Below, piece by piece: positions 24,527 to 44,323 of a stretch of 64,000 bases of DNA. Position 1 is the first letter of the stretch. Each line of letters begins with the position of its first letter. The notes below the pieces were generated by a model. It searched no databases and was not told the origin of the DNA. It was given only the letters and a program-made list of their open reading frames with translations. The position numbers and the translations under genes were made by a program. Where the stretch lies: the NCBI GenBank assembly GCA_964004705.1, contig CAXFOQ010000001.1, forward strand, positions 7,467-71,466, given 5' to 3'. Source of the DNA: an uncultured Flavobacteriales bacterium. GTDB lineage: Bacteria > Bacteroidota > Bacteroidia > Flavobacteriales > UBA7312.

Positions 24527-27100
24527 TTATTCCTCTTTTTTAGATTTTTGAGTATTCACTTTCTTGGGTTTATTAATTTTAACTTTTAACTCACCTTTTC
24601 CTTCATCTAAACTAATCTTAATGTCATCACCTTCTTCAAGGTTTGCTTTAATAATTTCTTCTGCAATAATATCTTCTAAATACTTTTGAATTGCTCTTTT
24701 TAGTGGTCTAGCACCGAATTGAGAATCATAACCTTTATCAGCAATAAAATCTTTAGCTTTTTTATTTAAACTCAAAGAATATCCAAGTTGTGTAATTCTT
24801 TCAAATAATATTTTTAGTTCAATATCAATAATTTCATGAATATGCTCACTACTTAATGAATTAAACATGACTACGTCATCAATACGGTTTAAAAACTCAG
24901 GGGCAAATGCTTTTTTAAGCGCTTTAGCAATGACGCCTTTTGCGTCTGATTGATATGATTCTTTTCTGGCAGTTGTTGAAAATCCAACACCTTGACCAAA
25001 ATCTTTGAGCTGACGAGAACCTATATTTGATGTCATTATGATAATAGTATTCTTGAAGTTTATTTTTCTTCCTAAACTGTCTGTCATATAACCATCGTCT
25101 AATACTTGAAGTAGTAAATTGAATACATCGGGATGTGCTTTTTCTACTTCATCTAATAATATAATTGAGTAAGGTTTTCTTCTTACTTTCTCAGTAAGTT
25201 GACCACCTTCCTCATACCCAACGTATCCTGGAGGTGAACCTACAAGACGAGTGACGGCAAATTTTTCCATGTATTCACTCATATCAATTCTTATTAGAGA
25301 ATCATTGGTGTCAAACATAATTTTAGATAACTCTTTAGCTAACTGGGTTTTTCCAACGCCAGTGGGGCCTAAGAATATGAATGAGCCAATTGGTTTTTCA
25401 GGGTCTTTCAAGCCAACTCTATTTCTTCTTATAGCTTTAACTATTTTACTTACAGCTTCATCTTGACCGATAACTCTTTTTTGAAGTTCCTTTTCCATTT
25501 GAACAAGTTTTTTGCTTTCCTGTTCTGCAATTCTTTGTACAGGTACACCTGTCATCATTGCAACGACTTCTGCAACATTATCCTCTGTAACTATTTCTCT
25601 CTGATTTTTTAACTCATCTTCCCAAATAAGTTTAGCTTGTTTTAGATTATTTTCAATTTTTCTTTCTTCATCTCTTAACTTAGCAGCCTCTTCAAAACGT
25701 TGTTTTTTGATAACATTACCTTTTTGAGATTTGATAGCATCTAACTCTTTTTCAAGTTTTAAGATGTTTTCAGGAACATTGATGTTGTTGATATGTACTC
25801 TTGAGCCAGCTTCGTCTAATGCGTCGATTGCTTTATCTGGAAGGTGTCTATCGCTAATGTAACGGTTAGTAAGTGCGACACAAGATTCAAGTGCTTCATC
25901 TGTGTAAGATACATTATGATGGTCTTCATATCTTTCTTTGATATTTTGAAGAATTTGAAGTGTTTCATCAATAGAAGTTGGTTCAACTAAAACTTTTTGA
26001 AAACGTCTTTCTAATGCACCGTCTTTTTCTATATTTTGCCTATATTCATCTAAAGTAGTAGCACCGATACATTGCAGTTCACCACGAGCTAGGGCTGGTT
26101 TAAACATATTTGATGCATCCAAAGAACCAGAGGCGCCACCAGCGCCAACAATAGTATGTATTTCATCAATAAAAAGAATAATATCACTATTAACTTCTAA
26201 TTCGTTTAGAATAGCTTTCATACGTTCTTCAAATTGACCTCTATATTTTGTACCAGCTACTAATGCTGCCAAATCCAAAGAAATTATTCTTTTATTAAAC
26301 AGAACGCGAGAAACTTTACGTTGTACTATTCTGAGAGCCAAACCTTCAGCAATTGCTGACTTACCAACACCAGGTTCACCAATTAGAATTGGATTATTCT
26401 TTTTTCTTCTACTTAAAATTTGAGAAACTCGTTCAATTTCTTTTTCTCTACCAACAATGGGGTCAAGTTTATCATCAGAAGCCATCTTTGTTAAGTCTCT
26501 ACCAAAATTATCTAATACAGGAGTAGAAGACTTAGTGTTTCCTCTAGTTTGTTTTGGTTTATTACGAAAGAGTTCTTCATCATCTGTGTCGGAATCACCT
26601 AATTCTGCACTAGGATGAGAGCTAAATTCTGAAGTGTCATCATTAGATTCCTCTCCATGTATGTCTATCATTGAAGCAAATTCATTTTTAACGGTTTCAT
26701 AATCTACGTTAAACTGATTAAGAGATAAGGTTACGATACTATCTTCGTCTTTAAGCATAGAAAGAAGTAAGTGAATAGTTTTGATTTCTACGCTTTTAAA
26801 TATCATTAACTCTAAATGAGCTAATTTTACAGCTCTAGCAGCTTGTTTTTTTAACTCTAAATTATTTGAATTTGTGAACTCACTTTTTTCATTATTAACA
26901 ATTGAGCTTTCAACAATCTTTCTAAGTGCTGTTAAATCAACATCTAAGGCTTTGAGAATTATCACAGCAGAACCATTACCTTCTCTCAATATTCCGAGTA
27001 AAAAGTGTTCTGGTCCAATAGCATTATGACCTAGCCTAAGCGCCTCTTCTCGGCTAAAGCTGAGAACCTCATTAAGTCTGGGTGAAAATTTAGAATCCAT
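24527..27100 (-). CDS. clpC: ClpC-type AAA+ chaperone (Clp protease ATP-binding subunit)
   Basis: Clp_N repeats, two Walker A boxes (GEPGVGKS, GPTGVGKT), a short UVR-like middle domain (RFEEAAKLRDEE) and a VGF ClpP-docking loop; 857 aa. Confidence 0.92.
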   Translation of the reverse strand: MDSKFSPRLNEVLSFSREEALRLGHNAIGPEHFLLGILREGNGSAVIILKALDVDLTALRKIVESSIVNNEKSEFTNSNNLELKKQAARAVKLAHLELMIFKSVEIKTIHLLLSMLKDEDSIVTLSLNQFNVDYETVKNEFASMIDIHGEESNDDTSEFSSHPSAELGDSDTDDEELFRNKPKQTRGNTKSSTPVLDNFGRDLTKMASDDKLDPIVGREKEIERVSQILSRRKKNNPILIGEPGVGKSAIAEGLALRIVQRKVSRVLFNKRIISLDLAALVAGTKYRGQFEERMKAILNELEVNSDIILFIDEIHTIVGAGGASGSLDASNMFKPALARGELQCIGATTLDEYRQNIEKDGALERRFQKVLVEPTSIDETLQILQNIKERYEDHHNVSYTDEALESCVALTNRYISDRHLPDKAIDALDEAGSRVHINNINVPENILKLEKELDAIKSQKGNVIKKQRFEEAAKLRDEERKIENNLKQAKLIWEDELKNQREIVTEDNVAEVVAMMTGVPVQRIAEQESKKLVQMEKELQKRVIGQDEAVSKIVKAIRRNRVGLKDPEKPIGSFIFLGPTGVGKTQLAKELSKIMFDTNDSLIRIDMSEYMEKFAVTRLVGSPPGYVGYEEGGQLTEKVRRKPYSIILLDEVEKAHPDVFNLLLQVLDDGYMTDSLGRKINFKNTIIIMTSNIGSRQLKDFGQGVGFSTTARKESYQSDAKGVIAKALKKAFAPEFLNRIDDVVMFNSLSSEHIHEIIDIELKILFERITQLGYSLSLNKKAKDFIADKGYDSQFGARPLKRAIQKYLEDIIAEEIIKANLEEGDDIKISLDEGKGELKVKINKPKKVNTQKSKKEE

Positions 27101-27175: not shown

Positions 27176-27200
27176 TTATCAACATTTAATGTGTTGATAA
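27176..27200. promoter_or_regulatory. Perfect palindrome TTATCAACA-N7-TGTTGATAA in the clpC/gyrA divergent intergenic region
   Basis: Read directly. Each 9-bp arm is one mismatch from the DnaA-box consensus TTATCCACA. It lies about 76 nt from the clpC start and 81 nt from the gyrA start. Confidence 0.6.
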
Positions 27201-27280: not shown

Positions 27281-29794
27281 ATGCTTGACGGAGAGAAAAT
27301 CATTCCTATTAACATTGAAGAAGAAATGAAATCAAAGTACATTGATTATTCAATGTCTGTAATTGTTTCTAGAGCGTTGCCTGATGTTAGAGATGGTCTA
27401 AAACCTGTTCATCGCAGGGTATTGTATGGTATGCACGAATTGGGTGTAACTTCAACAAAAGCCTATAAAAAATCAGCTCGTATTGTAGGTGAAGTTCTTG
27501 GTAAATTTCACCCGCATGGTGACACTTCTGTATATGACACAATGGTTAGAATGGCTCAAGAATGGTCATTACGCTACATGTTGGTAGATGGTCAAGGAAA
27601 TTTTGGTTCTATTGACGGAGACAGTCCTGCTGCCATGCGTTACACTGAAGCACGTTTGAGAAAAACTGCTGAAGAGTTACTCTCTGATATTGATAAAAAT
27701 ACAGTTGATTATCAACTTAATTTTGATGATACCATAAAAGAGCCTGTTGTATTACCTGCCAGGATTCCTAACTTACTTTGTAATGGAACATCAGGTATTG
27801 CTGTAGGAATGGCTACTAACATGGCGCCTCATAACCTTTCAGAGGTTGTTGATGCTACCATTGCATATATAGATAATAGAGATATTGATACACAGGGTCT
27901 TATGAAGCACATTAAAGCTCCTGATTTTCCTACCGGTGGTATCATATATGGATATGAAGGTGTTAGAGATGCTTTTGAAACTGGAAGAGGAAAAGTAGTG
28001 ATGCGTGCCAAAACAACTTTCGAAGAAGTAGGAAACAGAGAAGCTATTATTGTTTCTGAAATTCCATACATGGTTAATAAGGCTGATATGATTAAGAAAA
28101 CAGCAGATTTAATCAATGATAAAAAACTTGATGGTATATACGATATTCGAGACGAATCAGATAGAAAAGGTATGCGAATTGTTTATGAACTTAAAAGAGA
28201 TGCAATACCTAATATTGTTTTAAATAAACTGTTCAAATACACACAATTACAATCCTCTTTTAGTGTCAATAATATTGCTCTTGTAAATGGACGTCCAGAA
28301 CAGTTAAACCTCAAACAAATTATAGGTCATTTTGTAGATCATAGGCATGAAGTTGTAGTAAGAAGAACATCTTACGAACTTGAACAGGCCGAGAAAAGAG
28401 CTCACGTACTTGAAGGTTTATTAATAGCTTTAGATAATTTAGACGCTATCATAAAAATGATTAGAGCTTCTAGAACTCCTGAGGATGCTAGAAATGGATT
28501 AATGACTAGTTTTAAATTGTCAGAAATTCAAGCAAAAGCTATTCTCGATTTAAGACTTCAAAAGTTAACTGGTCTTGAAAGAGATAAACTCAAAGAAGAA
28601 TACGATGAATTGATGAAAACCATTGCCTTTTTGAAAAATATCTTAGAGAATGAAAATATTAGAATGGATATTATCAAAACTGAATTGAATGAAGTGAAAG
28701 AAAAATACGGTGATGAAAGACGCTCTTCAATTGAATATGGGGGTGGTGATTTCAGAATTGAAGATATAATTCCAGATGAAGAAGTCGTAATTACGATTTC
28801 ACATTTAGGTTATGTTAAAAGAACTAAGCTTACTGAATATAAATCTCAAAATAGAGGAGGGGTTGGATCTAAAGGAGCTACCACAAGAGATGCTGATTTC
28901 TTAGAAGATATGTTTGTCGCAAATAACCACGATTATATGCTTTTCTTTACAGAAAAAGGAAGATGTTTCTGGTTAAGAGTATTTGAAATTCCTGAAGGGG
29001 CTAAAGCAACCAAAGGAAGGGCTATTCAGAATATGATCAATATTCCATCTGATGATAAAGTGATGGCTTTTATAAACACCAAGGATCTAAAAGATGAAGA
29101 CTATGTCAATACTCATTATGTTGTTATGTGTACTAAAAAAGGAGTGGTCAAAAAGACATCTTTAGAGTCGTATTCGAGACCTAGACAAAATGGTATTAAT
29201 GCCATTACTATTAGAGAAGAAGATCAGTTATTAGAAGCTAAATTAACAACAGGAAATTCCCAAATTATGTTAGCGGTCAGATCTGGTAAAGCCATTCGAT
29301 TTGAAGAAGAAAAGGTTAGGCCAATGGGAAGGACTGCTTCTGGTGTAAGAGGTGTTACTTTAGCTAATGATAATGACGAAGTAGTTGGTATGATTTGTGT
29401 TAACGATTTTGAATCTGATGTACTAGTTGTTTCTGAAAATGGATATGGTAAGCGTTCAAGCATTGAAGATTACAGAATTACCAACAGAGGAGGAAAAGGA
29501 GTTAAAACTATCAACGTAACTGAAAAAACAGGTAACCTTATTGCTTTGAAAAATGTAACTGATGAAAATGATCTTATGGTTGTCAATAAATCAGGAATAA
29601 CTATTAGAATTTCAGTTGCAGACTTGCGTCAAATGGGTAGAGCAACTCAAGGTGTTAGAATTATCAAACTAAGAGAAAAAGATTCTATTGCTGCTGTTGC
29701 AAAAGTACCAGCGGTAAATAATGAAGAAGAAGAACTGAAAGATGGTCAAACAGAATCAACTGACAACACCGAAAGCTCAACCTCTGAAGAATAA
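27281..29794 (+). CDS. gyrA: DNA gyrase subunit A
   Basis: N-terminus [42 protein letters not shown], active-site [11 protein letters not shown]-terminal beta-pinwheel repeats and an acidic tail; 837 aa. Confidence 0.97.
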
Positions 29795-36539: not shown

Positions 36540-38414
36540 TTACATCAATTCGTCTAGTTCTAACCAGCGCATTGTCTTGTCATCTAATTCTTGTATTATT
36601 TCTGCTAATTTTTCACTTTTTTCATTGATATCTAGAAATGACAAACCATCTTTAATTAAATCTTCCTCTAATTCTTTTTTAGTCGTTTCTAAGTTCTCAA
36701 TATCTTTTTCTAATTGTTCGTATTCGTATTTATCTTTGTAACTAACTTTATTAGAACCTTTAGATTTTGTTTTTTGTTTGTTTTCTACACAAGAATTTGT
36801 CTTTTTATTTTTTTCTTGTTCTACTTGTTTTTCTCTGTATTCTGAATAACTGCAGTACTCGTTTTTTATAATGCCATCACCTTCAAAAACAAAAAGATGA
36901 TCGGTGAGTTTATCCATAAAATACCTATCGTGCGACACTATTATCAAGCAACCAGAAAATTGTAATAAAAACTCTTCTAATTTATTAAGAGTTAACAAAT
37001 CTAAATCGTTGGTTGGCTCATCGAGAATTAAAAAGTTAGGATTTTTCATCAATACCATTAATAAATAAAGTCTTCTTTTTTCTCCACCACTTAGTTTTGA
37101 AACAAAAGTATATTGTGTTTTAGGAGGAAACATAAAATGTGTTAACATTTGTGATGCTGTTACTTTTTTACCATTAGCCATTACAATTACTTCTGCAATG
37201 TCTTTTAGTGAATCAACAACTCTTTTATCTTCTTTTAATTGTATTCCCTTTTGAGAGAAATAACCATAAACAATAGTTTCTCCAACATTTACTTTACCAC
37301 TATCAGCTATTTCATTTTGAGTAAGTATATCTAAAAAAGTGGACTTCCCCACACCATTTTTACCAACTATTCCTATACGTTCTCCCTTTTTGAAAGTATA
37401 GTCAAAGCCATTGAGTATTTTTATATCACCATAACTTTTGTAGACTTTCTTTAGTTCAAGTATTTTACCCCCTATCCTACTCATTTTTATTTCTAGTTTA
37501 AGCTCATGCTTAACTTTAATTTTAGAGGCTTTTTCTTTTATATTATTGAAGTTATCTATTCTTGACTTGGATTTGGTAGTACGTGCTTTTGGAGAGCGTC
37601 TCATCCACTCTAATTCTTTTTTCAACAACTTGCCAGTCTTTGACAAATTAGTGTGGTATATAGCTTCTCTTTCGGCTCTTTTTTCAAGAAAATAGGCGTA
37701 GTTACCATTGTGATGATACAATCTACTATTTTCTAGTTCTAAAATATGATTACAAACTCTATCTAAAAAATACCTGTCATGAGTTACCATGAGCAATGTA
37801 ATTTTTTGCTGTTGTAAAAACTTCTCTAACCATTCAATCATTTCTACATCTAAATGGTTTGTAGGCTCATCAAGTAAAAGTAAATCAGGTTCGTTGAGTA
37901 GTAGTAAGGCTAAGGATAAGCGTTTCTTTTCCCCTCCTGATAAATCACTAACTTTTTGTGTTAAATCACTAATATTAAATCTAAATAATATTTGTTTGAT
38001 ACGACGTTCATAATCCCAAGCATTTGCCTTGTCCATTTTATCAGTTAAATCTTCTAAAGTTTTACTGTTCAGAGAGTTATTACTAATTTCAATTTGTTTT
38101 AAGACTCTTTGATATTCCTTTATTAACAAGCTAATATCAGTTTGGTTTTCGGTAATTAATTCCTCAATAGTATGATTAGCATCAAAATTGGGTTCTTGAG
38201 CAAGGTAAGCGACTTTTATTCCTTTCCTCAGCGTTACAGTACCTTTATCTGAAATATTTTGACCAGCTATAATCTTGAGAATACTCGATTTTCCAGTACC
38301 ATTATTGGCTATTAAAGCCATTTTATCTCCTTGGTTTAATCCAAATGTCAAACCTTCAAATAAGATGCGTTCACCGTAGTTTTTACTTAAATTTTCAACA
38401 GATAAATAGTTCAT
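36540..38414 (-). CDS. ABC-F ATPase (Uup/YheS-like) with C-terminal coiled-coil extension
   Basis: Two ABC cassettes (GTGKSS / GKNGVGKST Walker A; LSGGEKKR / LSGGEKRR signatures). I prefer the start at [11 protein letters not shown] (38414), since the upstream 13 codons of the ORF overlap the out-of-frame gene relic. Confidence 0.9.
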
Positions 38415-38542
38415 ATTACACTGTTTTTTCCAGCAAGATATCCAGTAGTCCAAGCTGATTGAAAATTAAATCCGCCATTAACACCATCTATATCCAATAT
38501 TTCTCCACAAAAATATAGACCTTTATGAGTCTTACTTTCCAT
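38411..38542 (-). pseudogene. C-terminal relic (43 codons) of an HI0933/BaiN-family NAD(P)/FAD-dependent flavoprotein gene
   Basis: My translation of the minus strand gives [43 protein letters not shown]. This matches the conserved C-terminal ..TMESK..GLYF.GE.LD.DG.TGG.NFQ.A...G motif of the HI0933-like family. An in-frame TAG lies 6 codons upstream of the ATG, overlapping the last codons of the helicase gene, and the relic's TGA overlaps the ABC-F ATG (ATGA). Confidence 0.7.
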
Positions 38543-38547
38543 AGTAT

Positions 38548-40254
38548 TTATTTTGAATCTCTATTAACTCTAAGTTCTCTACCGTCAATGTAAATACCTT
38601 TAAAGCTGTTGGCTAGATTTTTAGAATGGCGACTATCTACCTCAAAAAAGCTACATTTTTTTTGTAAGTCAATATCGCCAACATCTGATTTACGAATTTT
38701 TGCTGTTTCCGAAATAAAATCTACTAAATCAGATTTACTTACTCCATCTAATTTACCTACATTAATAAAGAATCTAGTACCTTTCTTATTTGATTTTTTA
38801 CACTTTTTATCAGCTTTGTCATTTATTTTGAAATCTGACTTGGAGCGGTCTCTTTTAACTGATTTTCTGTTACGCCCTTTACTTCTTCTGTCAGAATATC
38901 CTCTAGATGAACGCTTTGAAGCTTTTTCACTTTCATTTAAATCTTTACCCTTTTTATTGTAGTTTAAAGAATCGATTTCTTTAGAAACTAATTTTTCTAC
39001 AAGTTCTTCATAACTTAAAGAGCCCAAAAGCATTTGAATATCAGTTAATAATTTACCGTTTAAATCTTTTCTAATAGGTGAGTTTAAAAGATTGCTTGCC
39101 CATTTACTGAGGCGTATGTTAAGTATGTCTTCAACGCTTGGGATACTTATTTTATCAATTTTCAATTTAAGAGCTTTTTCAAGTCCATCTAATTTTCTCA
39201 TATCCCTGTTGGTAAGGATAGATAATGAAATCCCTTTCTTACCTGCTCTAGCTGTACGACCACTTCTGTGTGTATAATAGGATGGATCGTCAGGAAGAGC
39301 ATAATGTATAACATGTGTTAAATCATTGACATCTATTCCCCTTGCAGCGACATCAGTTGCAACCAATACTTGTAATGTATGGTTTTTAAATCGCTTCATA
39401 ACTCTATCTCTTTGGGCTTGGGATAAATCACCGTGAAGTGCTTCTGATTGGTATCCACTCTTATTTAAGTCATCTGCAAGTTGTTGGGTTTTAATCCTCG
39501 TACGACAAAATATAATACCTCTAAATTCTTCTTCCACGTCTAGAACTCTTTTAAGTCCTTCAAATTTATCCGATGATTTGACAATAGTATATTGGTGTTC
39601 TATATTTTCGTTCAACTGATTTCCATTAGAAACTTTAACTTCAACGGGCTTTGACATGTAGCTTTTAACAATATTTTTAATTTCTTTTGGCATAGTCGCT
39701 GAAAACAACCAAGTGTTTTTAGCATCACCAGTATATGAAAGAATATCATCTAAATCCTCTTTGAAGCCCATATTTAACATTTCATCGGCTTCATCTAAAA
39801 CAACAAACCTTATTGTAGATAAATCCAAAATCTTTCTTCTCATTAAATCAAGAAGTCTTCCGGGAGTAGCTATAACAATTTGTGGAGTTCTCCTATTAAT
39901 GTCCTTCATCTGAACAACTATGGAAGCACCACCATAGACAGATTGTATTCGAATGTTTGGTAAATATTTAGCAAAAATTTCTAATTGTCCTGCAATCTGT
40001 TGCCCTAATTCTCTAGTTGGAGCAAGAATCAATGCTTGAGTAGTTTTTTGCTCAGAATATATCCAATCTAATAAAGGCAAACCGAAAGCAGCAGTTTTTC
40101 CTGTACCAGTTTGTGCTAAACCTATAAAATCCTGAGGTTTTTCACTTAAAAGTGGAATAGATTGTTCTTGTATGGGAGATGGTTTTTCGAAACCTAGTTC
40201 AGGAAGAACTTGTAAAAGTGGTTTTGAAAGTCCTAATTCTGAGAAACTTTTCAA
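38548..40254 (-). CDS. DEAD-box RNA helicase (DeaD/CsdA-like) with basic linker and C-terminal DbpA-type RNA-binding domain
   Basis: Q-motif region, [12 protein letters not shown] (VLDEADEM), SAT and [10 protein letters not shown] motifs, and a Lys/Arg/Ser-rich tail. TTG start; there is no in-frame ATG upstream before a stop. Confidence 0.93.
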
Positions 40255-40323
40255 ATTATAATAGCTTGATTAAATTTTTTTGTAAAAGTACCCTTTTTTA
40301 TCTCTAAAGAACTATAAAAGTAT

Positions 40324-40358
40324 AAAACAAAAAAAGCCTCTTCAATTGAAGAGGCTTT
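40324..40358 (-). terminator. Rho-independent terminator after the 66-aa ORF
   Basis: Minus-strand RNA: GCCUCUUC-AAUU-GAAGAGGC (40336-40355) followed by U7-G-U4. Separates the small ORF from the helicase gene. Confidence 0.8.
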
Positions 40359-40380
40359 CTAGATAGAATAATCTAAAAAA

Positions 40381-40581
40381 CTATGCTTTCTTTAAGAAAG
40401 GAAGACCAGTTTTTGGATTTTCAACTACTTTTTTACCAGCAGGAACTGCATCTAAACCAGTACTACGCTCGTCTTTTGAGAAATAATAAATAGTTTGAAC
40501 TCTTCCAGTTGATTTTAAAGTTACGTCTTTTGAGTTAAGGTAATAAGTTGTACCTTTACTGTTAGTATGCGCAAATGCCAT
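40381..40581 (-). CDS. Small hypothetical protein (66 aa) with internal T-x-YY-[LF]-x-SKD repeat
   Basis: ATG-initiated ORF with its own strong terminator. Two similar segments (TTYYLNSKD / QTIYYFSKDE) and a basic C-terminus (GLPFLKKA). I cannot assign a family. Confidence 0.6.
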   Translation of the reverse strand: MAFAHTNSKGTTYYLNSKDVTLKSTGRVQTIYYFSKDERSTGLDAVPAGKKVVENPKTGLPFLKKA

Positions 40582-41081
40582 AATTAAAGTTTTTAAATTA
40601 AAAATTTGTTTTTCATTCTGAGGTTCAATTTATAAAAAAATTAATTCTACTAGATATTTTTATATCTTTTTTAAGAAAATAATTATTGACAATTTAAAAT
40701 TTAATTTATAGACTATTTTAAAAATCTTCATTTTAGAATTTTACTAATCATTTTTTCGACTTTCTTGATTTACTAGATAAGAAAATGAATTTCAGATAAT
40801 TATTTCTGATGTAATTACCATTTTAAATTTATAATAAATTGATTATCAATGTTTTACGCTTTATAAGTGTGATTTATACAATTAGACTAAATTTTATCAA
40901 AAAAATTAAAATGAAATATTAAAAACTAAGCTAAAAATTCTTATCGAAAACTATAGCTATCAAACTAGATAAAGACTAAGAACGTACTCAAATAAAAAAG
41001 TTATCAACAGAGAAAAAACGATTTACTCCAATTATTTTAAACTAAAAATAACTCGAAAGTAGTAGTCAAGAGCTAATATAA
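40582..41081. other. 500-bp extremely AT-rich non-coding block with repeated short motifs
   Basis: No ORF longer than about 25 codons in any frame. ACTAGATA at 40649, 40772 and 40964. TTATC(A/G)A at 40843, 40894, 40941 and 41001. TTATCAACA at 41001-41009. Confidence 0.7.
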
Positions 41082-41852
41082 TTATGAACTCCTTGTGAAA
41101 ACAAATGATTTTTCAGTCGAAAAATCTTCATTAAAAACATAACCCTCGTTATTAAATGCTCTTAAATCATTTGGGTTTTTGATTTTATTCTCTAAAACGT
41201 AGCGACTCATCAAACCTCTAGCCTTTTTAGCAAAAAAACTTATGATTTTATACTGACCACTTTTCCAATCTTTAAATACAGGTGTTATAACTTTCGCTTT
41301 TAGTAATTTCATATCTATTGATTTAGAATACTCATTGGATGCAAGATTTAGTAAAAATTGTGAGTTAGTGCTTTCTAAATTATTATTTAGTTCAAAAGTA
41401 ATGTGGTTAGACCAAAAATCATAAAGTGAAGATGAATTGTTTATGCTAATTTTTGTACCCATCTCAAGTCTGTAAGCTTGAATTAAATCTAATGGTTTAA
41501 GTATGCCATACAAGCCTGATAGTATTTTAAAATGAGTTTGGGCATAATCTATAGTATTTGATGTTAATGATGTAGCATCTAAGCCTTTATATACATCTCC
41601 AGTAAAAGCAAAAATTGCTTGCTTTGCATTTTGAGGGTTAAAAGGAGTCTTATAATCTTGATATCGATTGGCATTCAAAAGCCCTAAATCTTTACTTATA
41701 TTCATCAATTTGGATAAATCTTCTGGTGAATAATCTTTCAATACATTAACTATCTTTTGACTTTCATCAAGAAATAGAGGTAAACTAAAATCAGAAATAG
41801 GAGCTTTATTATCAAAATCTAATGATTTTGCAGGAGAAATAATACTAATCAT
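41082..41852 (-). CDS. yaaA: Peroxide-stress protein YaaA (DUF328/UPF0246)
   Basis: N-terminus MISIISPAKSLDF and overall length (256 aa) typical of YaaA. Confidence 0.9.
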   Translation of the reverse strand: MISIISPAKSLDFDNKAPISDFSLPLFLDESQKIVNVLKDYSPEDLSKLMNISKDLGLLNANRYQDYKTPFNPQNAKQAIFAFTGDVYKGLDATSLTSNTIDYAQTHFKILSGLYGILKPLDLIQAYRLEMGTKISINNSSSLYDFWSNHITFELNNNLESTNSQFLLNLASNEYSKSIDMKLLKAKVITPVFKDWKSGQYKIISFFAKKARGLMSRYVLENKIKNPNDLRAFNNEGYVFNEDFSTEKSFVFTRSS

Positions 41853-41858
41853 ATATTT

Positions 41859-41866
41859 ATATTTGT
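41859..41866 (+). promoter_or_regulatory. Bacteroidota-type -7 promoter box TATATTTG
   Basis: Exact TAnnTTTG match upstream of the DMT transporter gene: 48 nt before the TTG at 41914 and 84 nt before the ATG at 41950. Confidence 0.4.
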
Positions 41867-41913
41867 TTTTTAAAATACAAACGATTTCATTTGCAGGCTA
41901 AAATTAGACAATT

Positions 41914-42807
41914 TTGAGAAACTTTACACAAAAGTATAGCTTGTTGACAATGCACCTAATAGTAATTCTTTTAGGATTGACAGGTGTTCTGGGTAAGCTT
42001 ATAGATACAGGTTCTACAGTACTAGTATGGTATCGCATGCTTATTGCTTTTTTATTTTTGGGTGTATATATATACATTAAATCAAACTCATTAAGAGTTT
42101 CAAAAAAGCATTTCATTCAAATAATTGGCATTGGTTGTATTGTTGCAGCTCATTGGTTATTATTTTTTGAAAGTATAAAAGTTTCCAATGTTTCTGTAGC
42201 TGTAGTTTGTATGGGCACCTCTTCCCTATTCTCTTCTGTTATAGAGCCACTTATCATTAAAAGAAAAATATATCTGAGGGAGATTATATTAGCTATTTTA
42301 GTACTTATTGCAATAGGAATTGCTATGAATGCTGACTTCTCATACTTGAAAGGATATGTATTTGGTATTGCTGCTGCATTCTTAGCTACTTTATTTACAA
42401 TTTTAAATGCTCTCTATGTCGATAAGGTAGAGTCCGAAAAAATTACTTCTATTGAAATGCTGGGTGGTTTTCTTTTTGTCTGTATATATATGTTATTTTC
42501 TAATTCATTTTCTTTAGCCGATTTAGTTATTAGTTGGAATGACATACTTTACCTAGTTATATTAGGAGGTATATGTACCAGCTTTGCCTTTGTAGTTAGT
42601 GTAGAAGTTATGAAGTTCTTATCTCCTTATAATGTAATAATGGCTGTCAATCTTGAGCCTGTATATAGTATATTACTAGCATTGGTATTGTTTGGTGAAT
42701 CCGAGAGTATGAATTTTTCTTTTTATCTAGGTGCAGTTTTGATTATTAGTGCAGTCAGTTTAGATGGTTATTTAAAGAAACAAGAAGATAAAAAATCTAT
42801 AAAATAG
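41914..42807 (+). CDS. DMT/EamA-family transporter
   Basis: Ten hydrophobic segments with two EamA-like halves. Start is ambiguous (TTG 41914 or ATG 41950). Confidence 0.7.
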   Translation: MRNFTQKYSLLTMHLIVILLGLTGVLGKLIDTGSTVLVWYRMLIAFLFLGVYIYIKSNSLRVSKKHFIQIIGIGCIVAAHWLLFFESIKVSNVSVAVVCMGTSSLFSSVIEPLIIKRKIYLREIILAILVLIAIGIAMNADFSYLKGYVFGIAAAFLATLFTILNALYVDKVESEKITSIEMLGGFLFVCIYMLFSNSFSLADLVISWNDILYLVILGGICTSFAFVVSVEVMKFLSPYNVIMAVNLEPVYSILLALVLFGESESMNFSFYLGAVLIISAVSLDGYLKKQEDKKSIK

Positions 42808-42834: not shown

Positions 42835-42842
42835 TATTTTTG
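42835..42842 (+). promoter_or_regulatory. Bacteroidota-type -7 promoter box TATTTTTG
   Basis: Exact TAnnTTTG match, 20 nt upstream of ATG 42863. Confidence 0.45.
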
Positions 42843-42862
42843 ATCCTAAATTTTATAAAACT

Positions 42863-44323
42863 ATGAGAAAATACTTTTTTTATACTCTTTTGTTTTTTGT
42901 TGTCATTTGTAATAGTTCTTTTTCTCAGGAGAGCTATAGGTTTGAGGGTCAAGTTAAAGGTCTGCAAGATTCAACTTGTATGTTGGCTTATTATTATGGC
43001 GATAAACAATTTGCAAAAGATACTGCAGAAATAGACCAAGCAGGTCGGTTTGTATTTAGTGGTGATGATACATTAGATCATGGTATGTATATGGTTATAT
43101 TACCAGATGGTAATTATTTTGAAATGGTAGTGACGGAAGATCGCTTTTCGTTTACTACATCTCTCGACAATTTGATTGGAGATATGAAATTTACTAATTC
43201 CTACGAAAATGAAAAGTTTTACGGATATATGCAGTTTATCTCCGAAAAGCAAAAAGCTCTTAAAGAGCTACAAGCCAAAAAAGAAAATGTTAGCGAAAAA
43301 GAAGCTAATAGTATTGATATACAGATTGAAGAAATGGGCAAAGTTGTAATGGATTTTCAAAATAATTTCACATTTAATAACCCAGACATCTTATTCAGTA
43401 AAATATTAAATGCCAGTAAAGATGTTGAAATGCCACAGTTTCCATTATTAACTGATGGCACTAATGATAAAGATTTACAGTTTAAATATTATAAATCTCA
43501 CTTTTTTGACACTTTTGATTTTTCAGATGATAGATTACTAAGAACGCCTGTATTTCATAGTAAAATAAATACCTATTTAGAAAACTTAACAGCTAAAACA
43601 CCGGATTCTCTCATTGTTTCTTGTGACTACCTTATCGAAAAATCAAGAGTAAATACAGACGTCTTTAGATATGTTGTTTCATATCTAACTTCTACATATG
43701 AACGTTCTAAAATAATGGGGCTAGAAAAAGTTTTCGTACATCTGGTAAATAAATATTATAAAACCAATGAGGTAACTTGGGTTGATGAAGCTCAAATGTT
43801 TAAAATTATTGATAGAGCTGAAACCATTGAGCCCCTAATGATTGGCTCTAAAGCTCCAAATTTAGTGCTTAGAGACTCCTCAGATGTTATACATGATATG
43901 TATGACATCAAGAGAGATTTAACTATGATTATTTTCTATGACCCTGATTGTGGACATTGTAAAAAAGAAATTCCTGTTATTAAGCAAAATTATGACGAAT
44001 GGTTAAATGATGGAATAAGTATAGAAGTCATAGCAGTAAGTGTAGAGTTAGACCGAGAAAAATGGGTTGATTTTATTAATACATACGACATCGGCGATTG
44101 GACAAATGTTGCCGAATTTAAAACCTTTGTTGATGGTGAGTTCAATAGACAAAACGACCCTTATGTTACACCCTTTCCTTATATCAAACAATTGTACGAT
44201 ATAAATGGAACACCAAAAGTATATCTATTAGATAAAGATAAAAATATTTTGGTTAATGCTATAAAAGGAAATATTGGAGTAGAACAATTGTCAGAAGTTG
44301 TTCTTAAAGAGGCAAAAAAATAA
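42863..44323 (+). CDS. Secreted thioredoxin-fold protein (TlpA/redoxin-like C-terminal domain with long N-terminal domain)
   Basis: Signal peptide and a C-terminal CxxC active site in FYDPDCGHCKKE within a thioredoxin-like region; 486 aa. Confidence 0.75.
   Translation: MRKYFFYTLLFFVVICNSSFSQESYRFEGQVKGLQDSTCMLAYYYGDKQFAKDTAEIDQAGRFVFSGDDTLDHGMYMVILPDGNYFEMVVTEDRFSFTTSLDNLIGDMKFTNSYENEKFYGYMQFISEKQKALKELQAKKENVSEKEANSIDIQIEEMGKVVMDFQNNFTFNNPDILFSKILNASKDVEMPQFPLLTDGTNDKDLQFKYYKSHFFDTFDFSDDRLLRTPVFHSKINTYLENLTAKTPDSLIVSCDYLIEKSRVNTDVFRYVVSYLTSTYERSKIMGLEKVFVHLVNKYYKTNEVTWVDEAQMFKIIDRAETIEPLMIGSKAPNLVLRDSSDVIHDMYDIKRDLTMIIFYDPDCGHCKKEIPVIKQNYDEWLNDGISIEVIAVSVELDREKWVDFINTYDIGDWTNVAEFKTFVDGEFNRQNDPYVTPFPYIKQLYDINGTPKVYLLDKDKNILVNAIKGNIGVEQLSEVVLKEAKK

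Follow-up and report, generated by a model that had tools for sequence, protein, structure and literature searches.

The window analysed here, a 64-kb stretch of DNA from an uncultured Flavobacteriales bacterium, has 31% GC (30.9%) and a gene content, with DUF4369, DUF5106, DUF4953 and DUF5117 domains, that is typical of Bacteroidota. Between two of its minus-strand genes, yaaA upstream and an open reading frame (ORF) of 66 amino acids (aa) downstream, lies a 500-bp spacer at 40582–41081, which is the subject of this analysis (coordinates are positions in the window, and minus-strand distances are counted from the ATG of the 66-aa gene). Since both genes are on the minus strand, this block is the DNA directly upstream of the 66-aa gene. 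It is the largest spacer in the window, against a median of 8 bp and runners-up of 180, 174 and 126 bp, and the keeping of 500 bp of non-coding DNA in so streamlined a genome signals function. An earlier note on this DNA had described the block as non-coding, which is borne out by 12–23 stops per frame, a longest stop-free run of 31 codons and the absence of any ORF of at least 30 aa. The same note had called it ultra-AT-rich, which is true of its 18.4% GC (vs 30.9% window-wide) but does not make it distinctive, because all but one of the window spacers of at least 71 bp have an equally low GC content of 13–24%.

Read upstream from the start codon on the minus strand, on which all of its elements are given here, the block begins with a conserved A/U-rich leader of about 40 nt (40582–40622), recognised from identity in alignment A6, which holds nine sequences, the window and eight relatives. 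The last 25 nt of this leader are 96–100% identical, and the preceding 25 nt 80–100% identical, in all eight relatives, L106 included. Beyond it lies a T-tract with TATAAATTGAAC (40623–40640), a candidate core-promoter box that is invariant in the window clade and within which TAAATTG occupies 40626–40632; this run was in the scan pattern that recovered loci L097–L106, and its invariance there is by construction. A 7-codon upstream ORF (ATGAAAAACAAATTTTTAATTTAA, 40595–40618, minus strand) ends 13 nt before the main start codon, and is probably not a leader peptide, as its ATG is missing in L011, L099 and L106.

Farther upstream stand three modules, each pairing a palindrome with a copy of TATCTAGT, the octamer that the earlier note had read on the plus strand as ACTAGATA. 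In the module nearest the gene, the palindrome ATTGTCAAT (40685–40693, at -112) is followed by the proximal TATCTAGT box at -75 (40649–40656), where ATCTAGTA is invariant in A6, and then by the T-tract with TATAAATTGAAC and the leader. The palindrome, ATTG-T-CAAT, lies within ATTGTCAATAA (40683–40693), which was not in the search pattern of the locus scan and is invariant in 15/15 sequences of the proximal alignment. The middle module joins TTGATAATCAA (40839–40849, at -268), a palindrome whose core TGATWATCA recurs in other upstream regions, to the TATCTAGT box at -198 (40772–40779), where ATCTAGTAA is invariant in 9/9 A6 sequences, including L099 and L106; at the -268 palindrome relatives have CTGATWATCAG, both flanks having changed symmetrically. 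Near this middle box, TGATTAGTA (40742–40750) resembles the TATATTAGT and TAGATTAGT boxes of other lineages when the modules are stacked, and might tentatively be assigned to a middle promoter module as its core box, although it is conserved only in the window group. The distal module consists of GTTGATAAC (41000–41008, at -427), a one-base variant of GTTAWTAAC that overlaps TTATCAACA, and of the TATCTAGT box at -390 (40964–40971), which is kept in 8/9 A6 sequences and lost in L106. At the position of GTTGATAAC (-404 to -430), L001, L002, L099, L106, L098, L101 and L017 have GTTAATAAC or GTTATTAAC. A further conserved island, CTAATTGTATAAATCACACTTATAAA (40860–40885), has changed little within the window group, and L106 keeps part of it.

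All coordinates and motif counts in the earlier note proved correct on recheck. On the plus strand, ACTAGATA occurs three times in the block, at 40649, 40772 and 40964 (out of seven copies in the 64-kb window), TTATCRA four times, at 40843, 40894, 40941 and 41001, and GATAA three times, at 40776, 40795 and 40968, while TTATCAACA at 41001–41009 is indeed identical to both arms of an inverted repeat at 27176–27200. When the block was simulated 5000 times with a first-order Markov model, some 8-mer with at least two G/C occurred at least three times in 3.0% of runs, and at least four same-strand TTATCRA boxes in none (0/5000); both tests are post hoc, with simulations that preserve local composition, and conservation is the stronger evidence. 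Within the window group the three ACTAGATA copies, which the coding strand spells TATCTAGT, show no variation at all, and L099 and L106 keep two of them. The TTATCRA boxes fared unevenly by the same measure, those at 41001 and 40843 lying in conserved elements and those at 40894 and 40941 varying among close relatives. A search of the block for internal long repeats or for inverted repeats of the invertible-promoter type returned only weak AT-rich matches, and the orientation of the block is the same in all relatives. The phasing of A-tracts in the block was not significant (best period 11 bp, uncorrected p 0.03 among 13 periods).

For the comparison with relatives we collected loci with an identical or related 66-aa gene, 106 of which were fetched, and used the four-fold degenerate sites of the flanking genes as a neutral yardstick. 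Throughout the clade yaaA, the gap, the small gene and the helicase follow one another in this order, with a gap of 460–500 bp in all clade relatives, and indels among relatives within the block are of single bases, as expected of non-coding DNA. Flanking four-fold identity to the window is 70–81% in L002, L011 and L103, about 70% in L099, and 33–43%, which is saturated, in L106 (43%), L098, L101 and L017. Against this baseline, the 125 nt adjoining the start codon (40582–40706) are 72–100% identical in every A6 relative, including L106, and the islands at 40982–41031 and 40757–40781 likewise stand above the four-fold sites, the former being 64–84% identical in L099 and L106. Judged by these alignments, purifying selection acts on the block, of which the 70 nt nearest yaaA could be neutral.

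Motif conservation in relatives was a check that the earlier note had named beforehand, and the motifs do recur in distant lineages. In many other metagenome-assembled genomes (MAGs) of Flavobacteriales the gap upstream of the small gene measures 340–940 bp, and the long spacers of distant lineages are unalignable with the window, yet they contain the same words in the same order: a GTTAWTAAC palindrome at -100 to -113 before the ATG, ATCTAGT at -71 to -78 (8 upstream regions have it there, among them those of the unalignable L020, L021, L023, L062 and L092), a T-tract followed by a TATATTAG, TAGATTAG or TATAAATTG box, and a leader that often contains TATTAAC. Farther upstream these lineages have another GTTAWTAAC, likewise paired with an ATCTAGT, and a (C)TGATWATCA(G) palindrome lies in between. 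Counted over 33 upstream regions, with expectations from Markov simulations, GTTAWTAAC was observed 19 times vs 0.30 expected, an 89-fold excess over the remaining sequence of those loci; ATCTAGT was observed 18 times vs 0.94 expected, with 18 copies in sense and 3 in antisense; and TGATWATCA 7 times, in 7 upstream regions, vs 0.23 expected. No exact GTTAWTAAC was found elsewhere in the 64-kb window, and nearly all of its exact copies in the 106 fetched loci lie upstream of the small gene. The motif set accompanies that gene into loci that have neither yaaA nor the helicase. At the level of sequence, the order and position of the elements are shared across deep lineages, and GTTAWTAAC is tied near-exclusively to the small gene.

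The -112 element of the window sits where other lineages have GTTAWTAAC, and the half-sites have changed there in mirror fashion about a 1-nt centre, the window clade having ATTG-T-CAAT and the other lineages GTTA-T-TAAC. With a centre of 1 nt this palindrome cannot form a hairpin, and a mirrored change is what a dimeric protein that binds double-stranded DNA would constrain. GTTAWTAAC and TGATWATCA both look like candidate operators, being short palindromes that are over-represented, and conserved in position, before orthologous genes.

On this evidence we consider it probable that the block is an extended, modular promoter/operator region, acting at the level of DNA, of the 66-aa gene (40381–40581, minus strand), possibly with tandem promoters. 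That proteins bind there, where transcription starts and which way regulation runs are matters that we infer. The proposed layout, from the start codon upstream, would be an unstructured A/U-rich leader of about 40 nt, a core promoter marked by the T-tract and a TATAAATTG box, and three modules, each a 9-bp palindrome followed 30–70 bp later by a directional ATCTAGT box. The palindromes ATTGTCAAT at -112, TGATAATCA at -268 and GTTGATAAC at -427 would be occupied by one or two dimeric DNA-binding regulators, which might act cooperatively or by looping between sites 150–320 bp apart; the ATCTAGT boxes would be bound by a further factor or be parts of tandem promoters; and the elements together would set the level of an apparently highly expressed gene. 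Among its candidates the earlier note had listed a regulated leader, or a promoter, of great length that serves the 66-aa ORF, and it is this one that the comparative data favour, so that its interpretation as a whole is partly supported.

Two TAAATTG boxes lie in invariant cores of the block. One belongs to TAAATTGA (40625–40632), which fits TAnnTTG, and the other to TAAATTGT (40689–40696), which overlaps ATTGTCAATAA and fits TAnnTTGY, the SM5 motif described in Flavobacterium psychrophilum (PMC9723704); in an SM5-type promoter this box would be expected at -12 to -5 from the start. This match to an SM5-type promoter is a lead, and in the distal of the two boxes (TAAATTGT) the TA is not kept in the more distant L098, L101 and L017. 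Several points weigh against a promoter/operator region. The sigmaA -7 box TAnnTTTG is absent from both strands of the block, while it is present upstream of 11/24 other genes of the window, and the promoter assignment is made by analogy. Between ATCTAGT and the TATA-like box the distance differs among lineages, with values of 21 to 35 nt, so that ATCTAGT cannot be a fixed -33 element, and its strand bias would also fit a signal at the RNA level, should the transcript begin far upstream. Nor do all family members share the long architecture, as many of those in other Flavobacteriales have only 80–125 bp upstream, and relatedness inflates some of the motif counts; the six ATTGWCAAT sites, for example, all come from one clade.

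A search of the window for a wider regulon with ATTGTCAATAA, TTTATAAATTGAAC, ATCTAGTA and GTTAWTAAC gave no further convincing sites. One candidate, GTTATAAC (42840–42847), upstream of a thioredoxin-like gene at 42863, was dropped, as only TTCGTTAT is conserved there in relatives. At that site the window group has GTTATAAC, and the L105 lineage GTTATTAAC (L105 9516–9524), just upstream of a sigmaA-type -7 box, before a gene with DUF4369, DUF5106 and thioredoxin-like domains, and a link to the palindrome of the block is doubtful. A literature search for the motifs yielded unrelated primers and tags and no matching operator.

The 66-aa gene belongs to an uncharacterised family, with 298 homologues detected for its protein, in Bacteroidota, Patescibacteria/Saccharibacteria, TM6, Aminicenantes and a MAG of an Aenigmarchaeota (a DPANN archaeon); exactly the same protein is encoded on contigs of TARA and other marine metagenomes. 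Pfam, NCBIfam, PHROGs and PDB sequences gave no match to it. Its AlphaFold (AF2) model predicts five beta strands (pLDDT 91.8), for which Foldseek gave no significant match, the best being OB-fold proteins (the Pf3 single-stranded DNA (ssDNA)-binding protein, SSB and S17) at E 0.17 or worse. Its share of C-ending two-fold codons, 0.50 on 14 codons, is the window maximum (median 0.23), and at four-fold sites it is better conserved than its neighbours; these two features suggest high expression, and we take the gene to be real, and probably highly expressed. A strong intrinsic terminator of its own (40331–40360, minus strand), with a 13-pair stem followed by a T-run, separates it from a DEAD-box helicase gene with a DbpA C-terminal domain. 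That the predicted beta-barrel is a nucleic-acid-binding regulator or a stress protein of a hitherto unrecognised kind, which autoregulates as a self-contained unit through the palindrome and ATCTAGT modules, seems to us quite unlikely, though it would explain why GTTAWTAAC is nearly confined to one spacer per genome.

The main rival explanation, which is not mutually exclusive with a promoter/operator region, places the signals in RNA. Most of the block would be transcribed, from a distal promoter, as an unstructured A/U-rich 5′ untranslated region (UTR) of 300–450 nt, in which AUCUAGU on the sense strand would be bound by an RNA-binding protein, possibly the 66-aa product itself, in a cspA-like autoregulation. 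The strand bias of ATCTAGT (18 sense vs 3 antisense) would fit such a leader, and the repeated modules could be tandem promoters that give long leaders. Both strands are less stable than dinucleotide shuffles (z +1.73 for sense and +2.36 for antisense), which fits selection for open RNA; the top fold matches of the protein, none of them significant (best E 0.17), are OB-fold nucleic-acid binders; and the gene adjoins that of a DEAD-box RNA helicase. What makes a purely RNA-level explanation fairly unlikely is that the other recurrent elements are palindromes with 1-nt centres, typical of double-stranded DNA sites, and that no more than some 50 nt separate the ATG from a conserved T-tract and TATA-like box. 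RNAalifold, run on eight proximal sequences, gives a single invariant long-range helix in which 0/11 pairs covary. This helix pairs the start codon with the -112 element, and its -7.5 kcal/mol falls short of the best chance duplexes in simulated upstream sequences, whose mean is -8.9 kcal/mol. Rfam adds no match, with nothing at the gathering score and nothing credible in the block at E ≤10, and no tRNA genes were found; a structured RNA or a separate small RNA (sRNA) gene is unlikely. For an AT-rich sRNA encoded within the spacer on either strand, as the earlier note had also proposed, one might point to conserved distal islands such as 40860–40885 to which no role has been assigned, but there is no terminator-like site within 40582–41081, Rfam is empty even at E ≤10, and the folds of both strands fall below the shuffled expectation, and we regard such a gene as very improbable.

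The earlier note's remaining candidates suffer from the same comparisons. The block could be the eroded remains of deleted genes, neutral DNA awaiting deletion for which the relic beside the helicase would be a parallel, in a clade that is losing genes nearby, bipA and a HI0933-like gene being missing or fragmented, and in whose sister lineage a TMEM164-family gene is decaying between yaaA and the small gene. However, tblastn with TMEM164 fragments, yaaA and the small protein detected no remnant in the block (best E 0.75), the block is more conserved than flanking four-fold sites, the lineages that carry TMEM164 still keep a spacer of about 380 bp before the small gene, and the motifs are common to distant lineages, which together leave this explanation little chance of being right. 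An origin of chromosome replication, or a locus that titrates DnaA, lying away from dnaA would be suggested by an AT-rich non-coding stretch unusually long for this genome, by one TTATCAACA box that is 1 mismatch from the DnaA box TTATCCACA, and by a density of boxes with ≤2 mismatches of 8 per kb in the block (four boxes) vs 4.4 per kb window-wide. Yet only one box in 500 bp has ≤1 mismatch, which makes no DnaA-box cluster, and the G that brings it that close is polymorphic: it is carried by the window, L003, L100, L103 and L011, while 4/8 close relatives (L001, L002, L099 and L106), along with L017, L098 and L101, have GTTAWTAAC, 2 mismatches from the DnaA box. The AT content equals that of other spacers, the conserved elements are not DnaA boxes, GC skew within the 64-kb window merely tracks gene orientation, and the same elements follow the small gene into contexts without yaaA and the helicase, unlike an origin, which we therefore consider extremely improbable here. 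As TTATCAACA overlaps a polymorphic palindrome variant, GTTGATAAC, its identity with the arms at 27176–27200 is most likely coincidental; TTATCAACA occurs five times in the window.

Some further observations concern the wider window. The perfect inverted repeat at 27176–27200, TTATCAACA-N7-TGTTGATAA, lies in a 180-bp divergent spacer between a ClpB/ClpC-type ATPase gene (24527–27100, minus strand) and gyrA (27281–29794, plus strand), and is a possible operator. Six DnaA-like boxes with 1 mismatch fall within about 4 kb (38501–42425), at 38501, 39269, 39814, 41001, 41709 and 42417; this is about 3 times the window average, with the boxes scattered rather than clustered and 4/6 of them inside coding sequence. 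On the other side of the block, yaaA (41082–41852, minus strand; NF002542 at 368 bits, PF03883), its co-directional upstream neighbour, encodes a peroxide stress protein, which in E. coli is tied to peroxide and iron stress. Past its stop codon a weak A/U hairpin (41030–41053, minus strand), present in both the minimum free energy (MFE) and centroid folds, may mark the yaaA 3′ end; it shows no compensatory changes, and a canonical terminator was not found there. In the sister lineage (L007, L008, L009 and L016), a gene for a TMEM164-family (PF14808) membrane protein stands between yaaA and the small gene (L007 2920–3590, L016 2919–3621, L009 848–1130); in L007 and L008 its reading frame is shifted, and in L009 it has lost an internal part. 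At 38411–38547 the window has just a 94-bp gap and a 43-aa ORF; there, between the helicase and ABC-F genes, the relatives compared (L002, L011, L012–L016, L001, L004, L007 and L008) have bipA/typA (585–589 aa) and a gene for a HI0933-like flavoprotein of about 397 aa, and truncated intermediates of 39–104 aa in several relatives point to ongoing gene loss in the clade.

As a cis-regulatory region, the block would belong to an ordinary class of element and would not be a new kind of genetic element, but its motif set is apparently undescribed and its target gene uncharacterised. The small protein is widespread, and probably abundant, in marine Flavobacteriales, a group with few mapped promoters and regulators. 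The analysis supplies oligonucleotides and a target gene for experiments, and removes a false origin candidate.

Among known systems, clusters of DnaA boxes at oriC share with the block an AT-rich, non-coding character and a near-consensus DnaA box; in the block that box is single, unclustered and not conserved, and the elements are linked to a gene rather than to a chromosomal position. The classical Fur box (GATAATGATAATCATTATC) has TGATAATCA as its central 9-mer, and yaaA is a neighbour, but the flanks of TGATAATCA are not conserved toward the Fur consensus. A Fur-box reading of TGATAATCA was rejected, as the best full 19-mer match is 13/19, a score reached by 65% of shuffles. Of the flavobacterial promoters (sigmaA with -33 TTG and -7 TAnnTTTG, and SM5 with TAnnTTGY; PMC9723704), the block is reminiscent in that TAAATTGT fits TAnnTTGY and TAAATTGA fits TAnnTTG, both in invariant cores; it differs in lacking TAnnTTTG and in that the TA of the distal box is lost in L098, L101 and L017. 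With regions of the cspA type, which combine an UP element, a long 5′ UTR with a cold box and autoregulation, the block has in common a gene for a small, beta-rich protein of some 66 aa whose upstream DNA, leader included, is long, AT-rich and conserved, and, in this clade, a DEAD-box helicase neighbour. It departs from them in that the 66-aa protein matches the cold-shock domain neither by sequence nor by fold, the leader has no predicted structure, and the gene is apart from the helicase in other lineages. With multi-operator promoters of the lac/gal/deo/ara type, the differences are that looping in the block is something we infer, that its 9-bp palindromes have arms of 4 bp, and that a directional ATCTAGT stands beside each; what the block shares with them is the presence of several short palindromes over 150–430 bp, one of them near the core promoter, at conserved positions.

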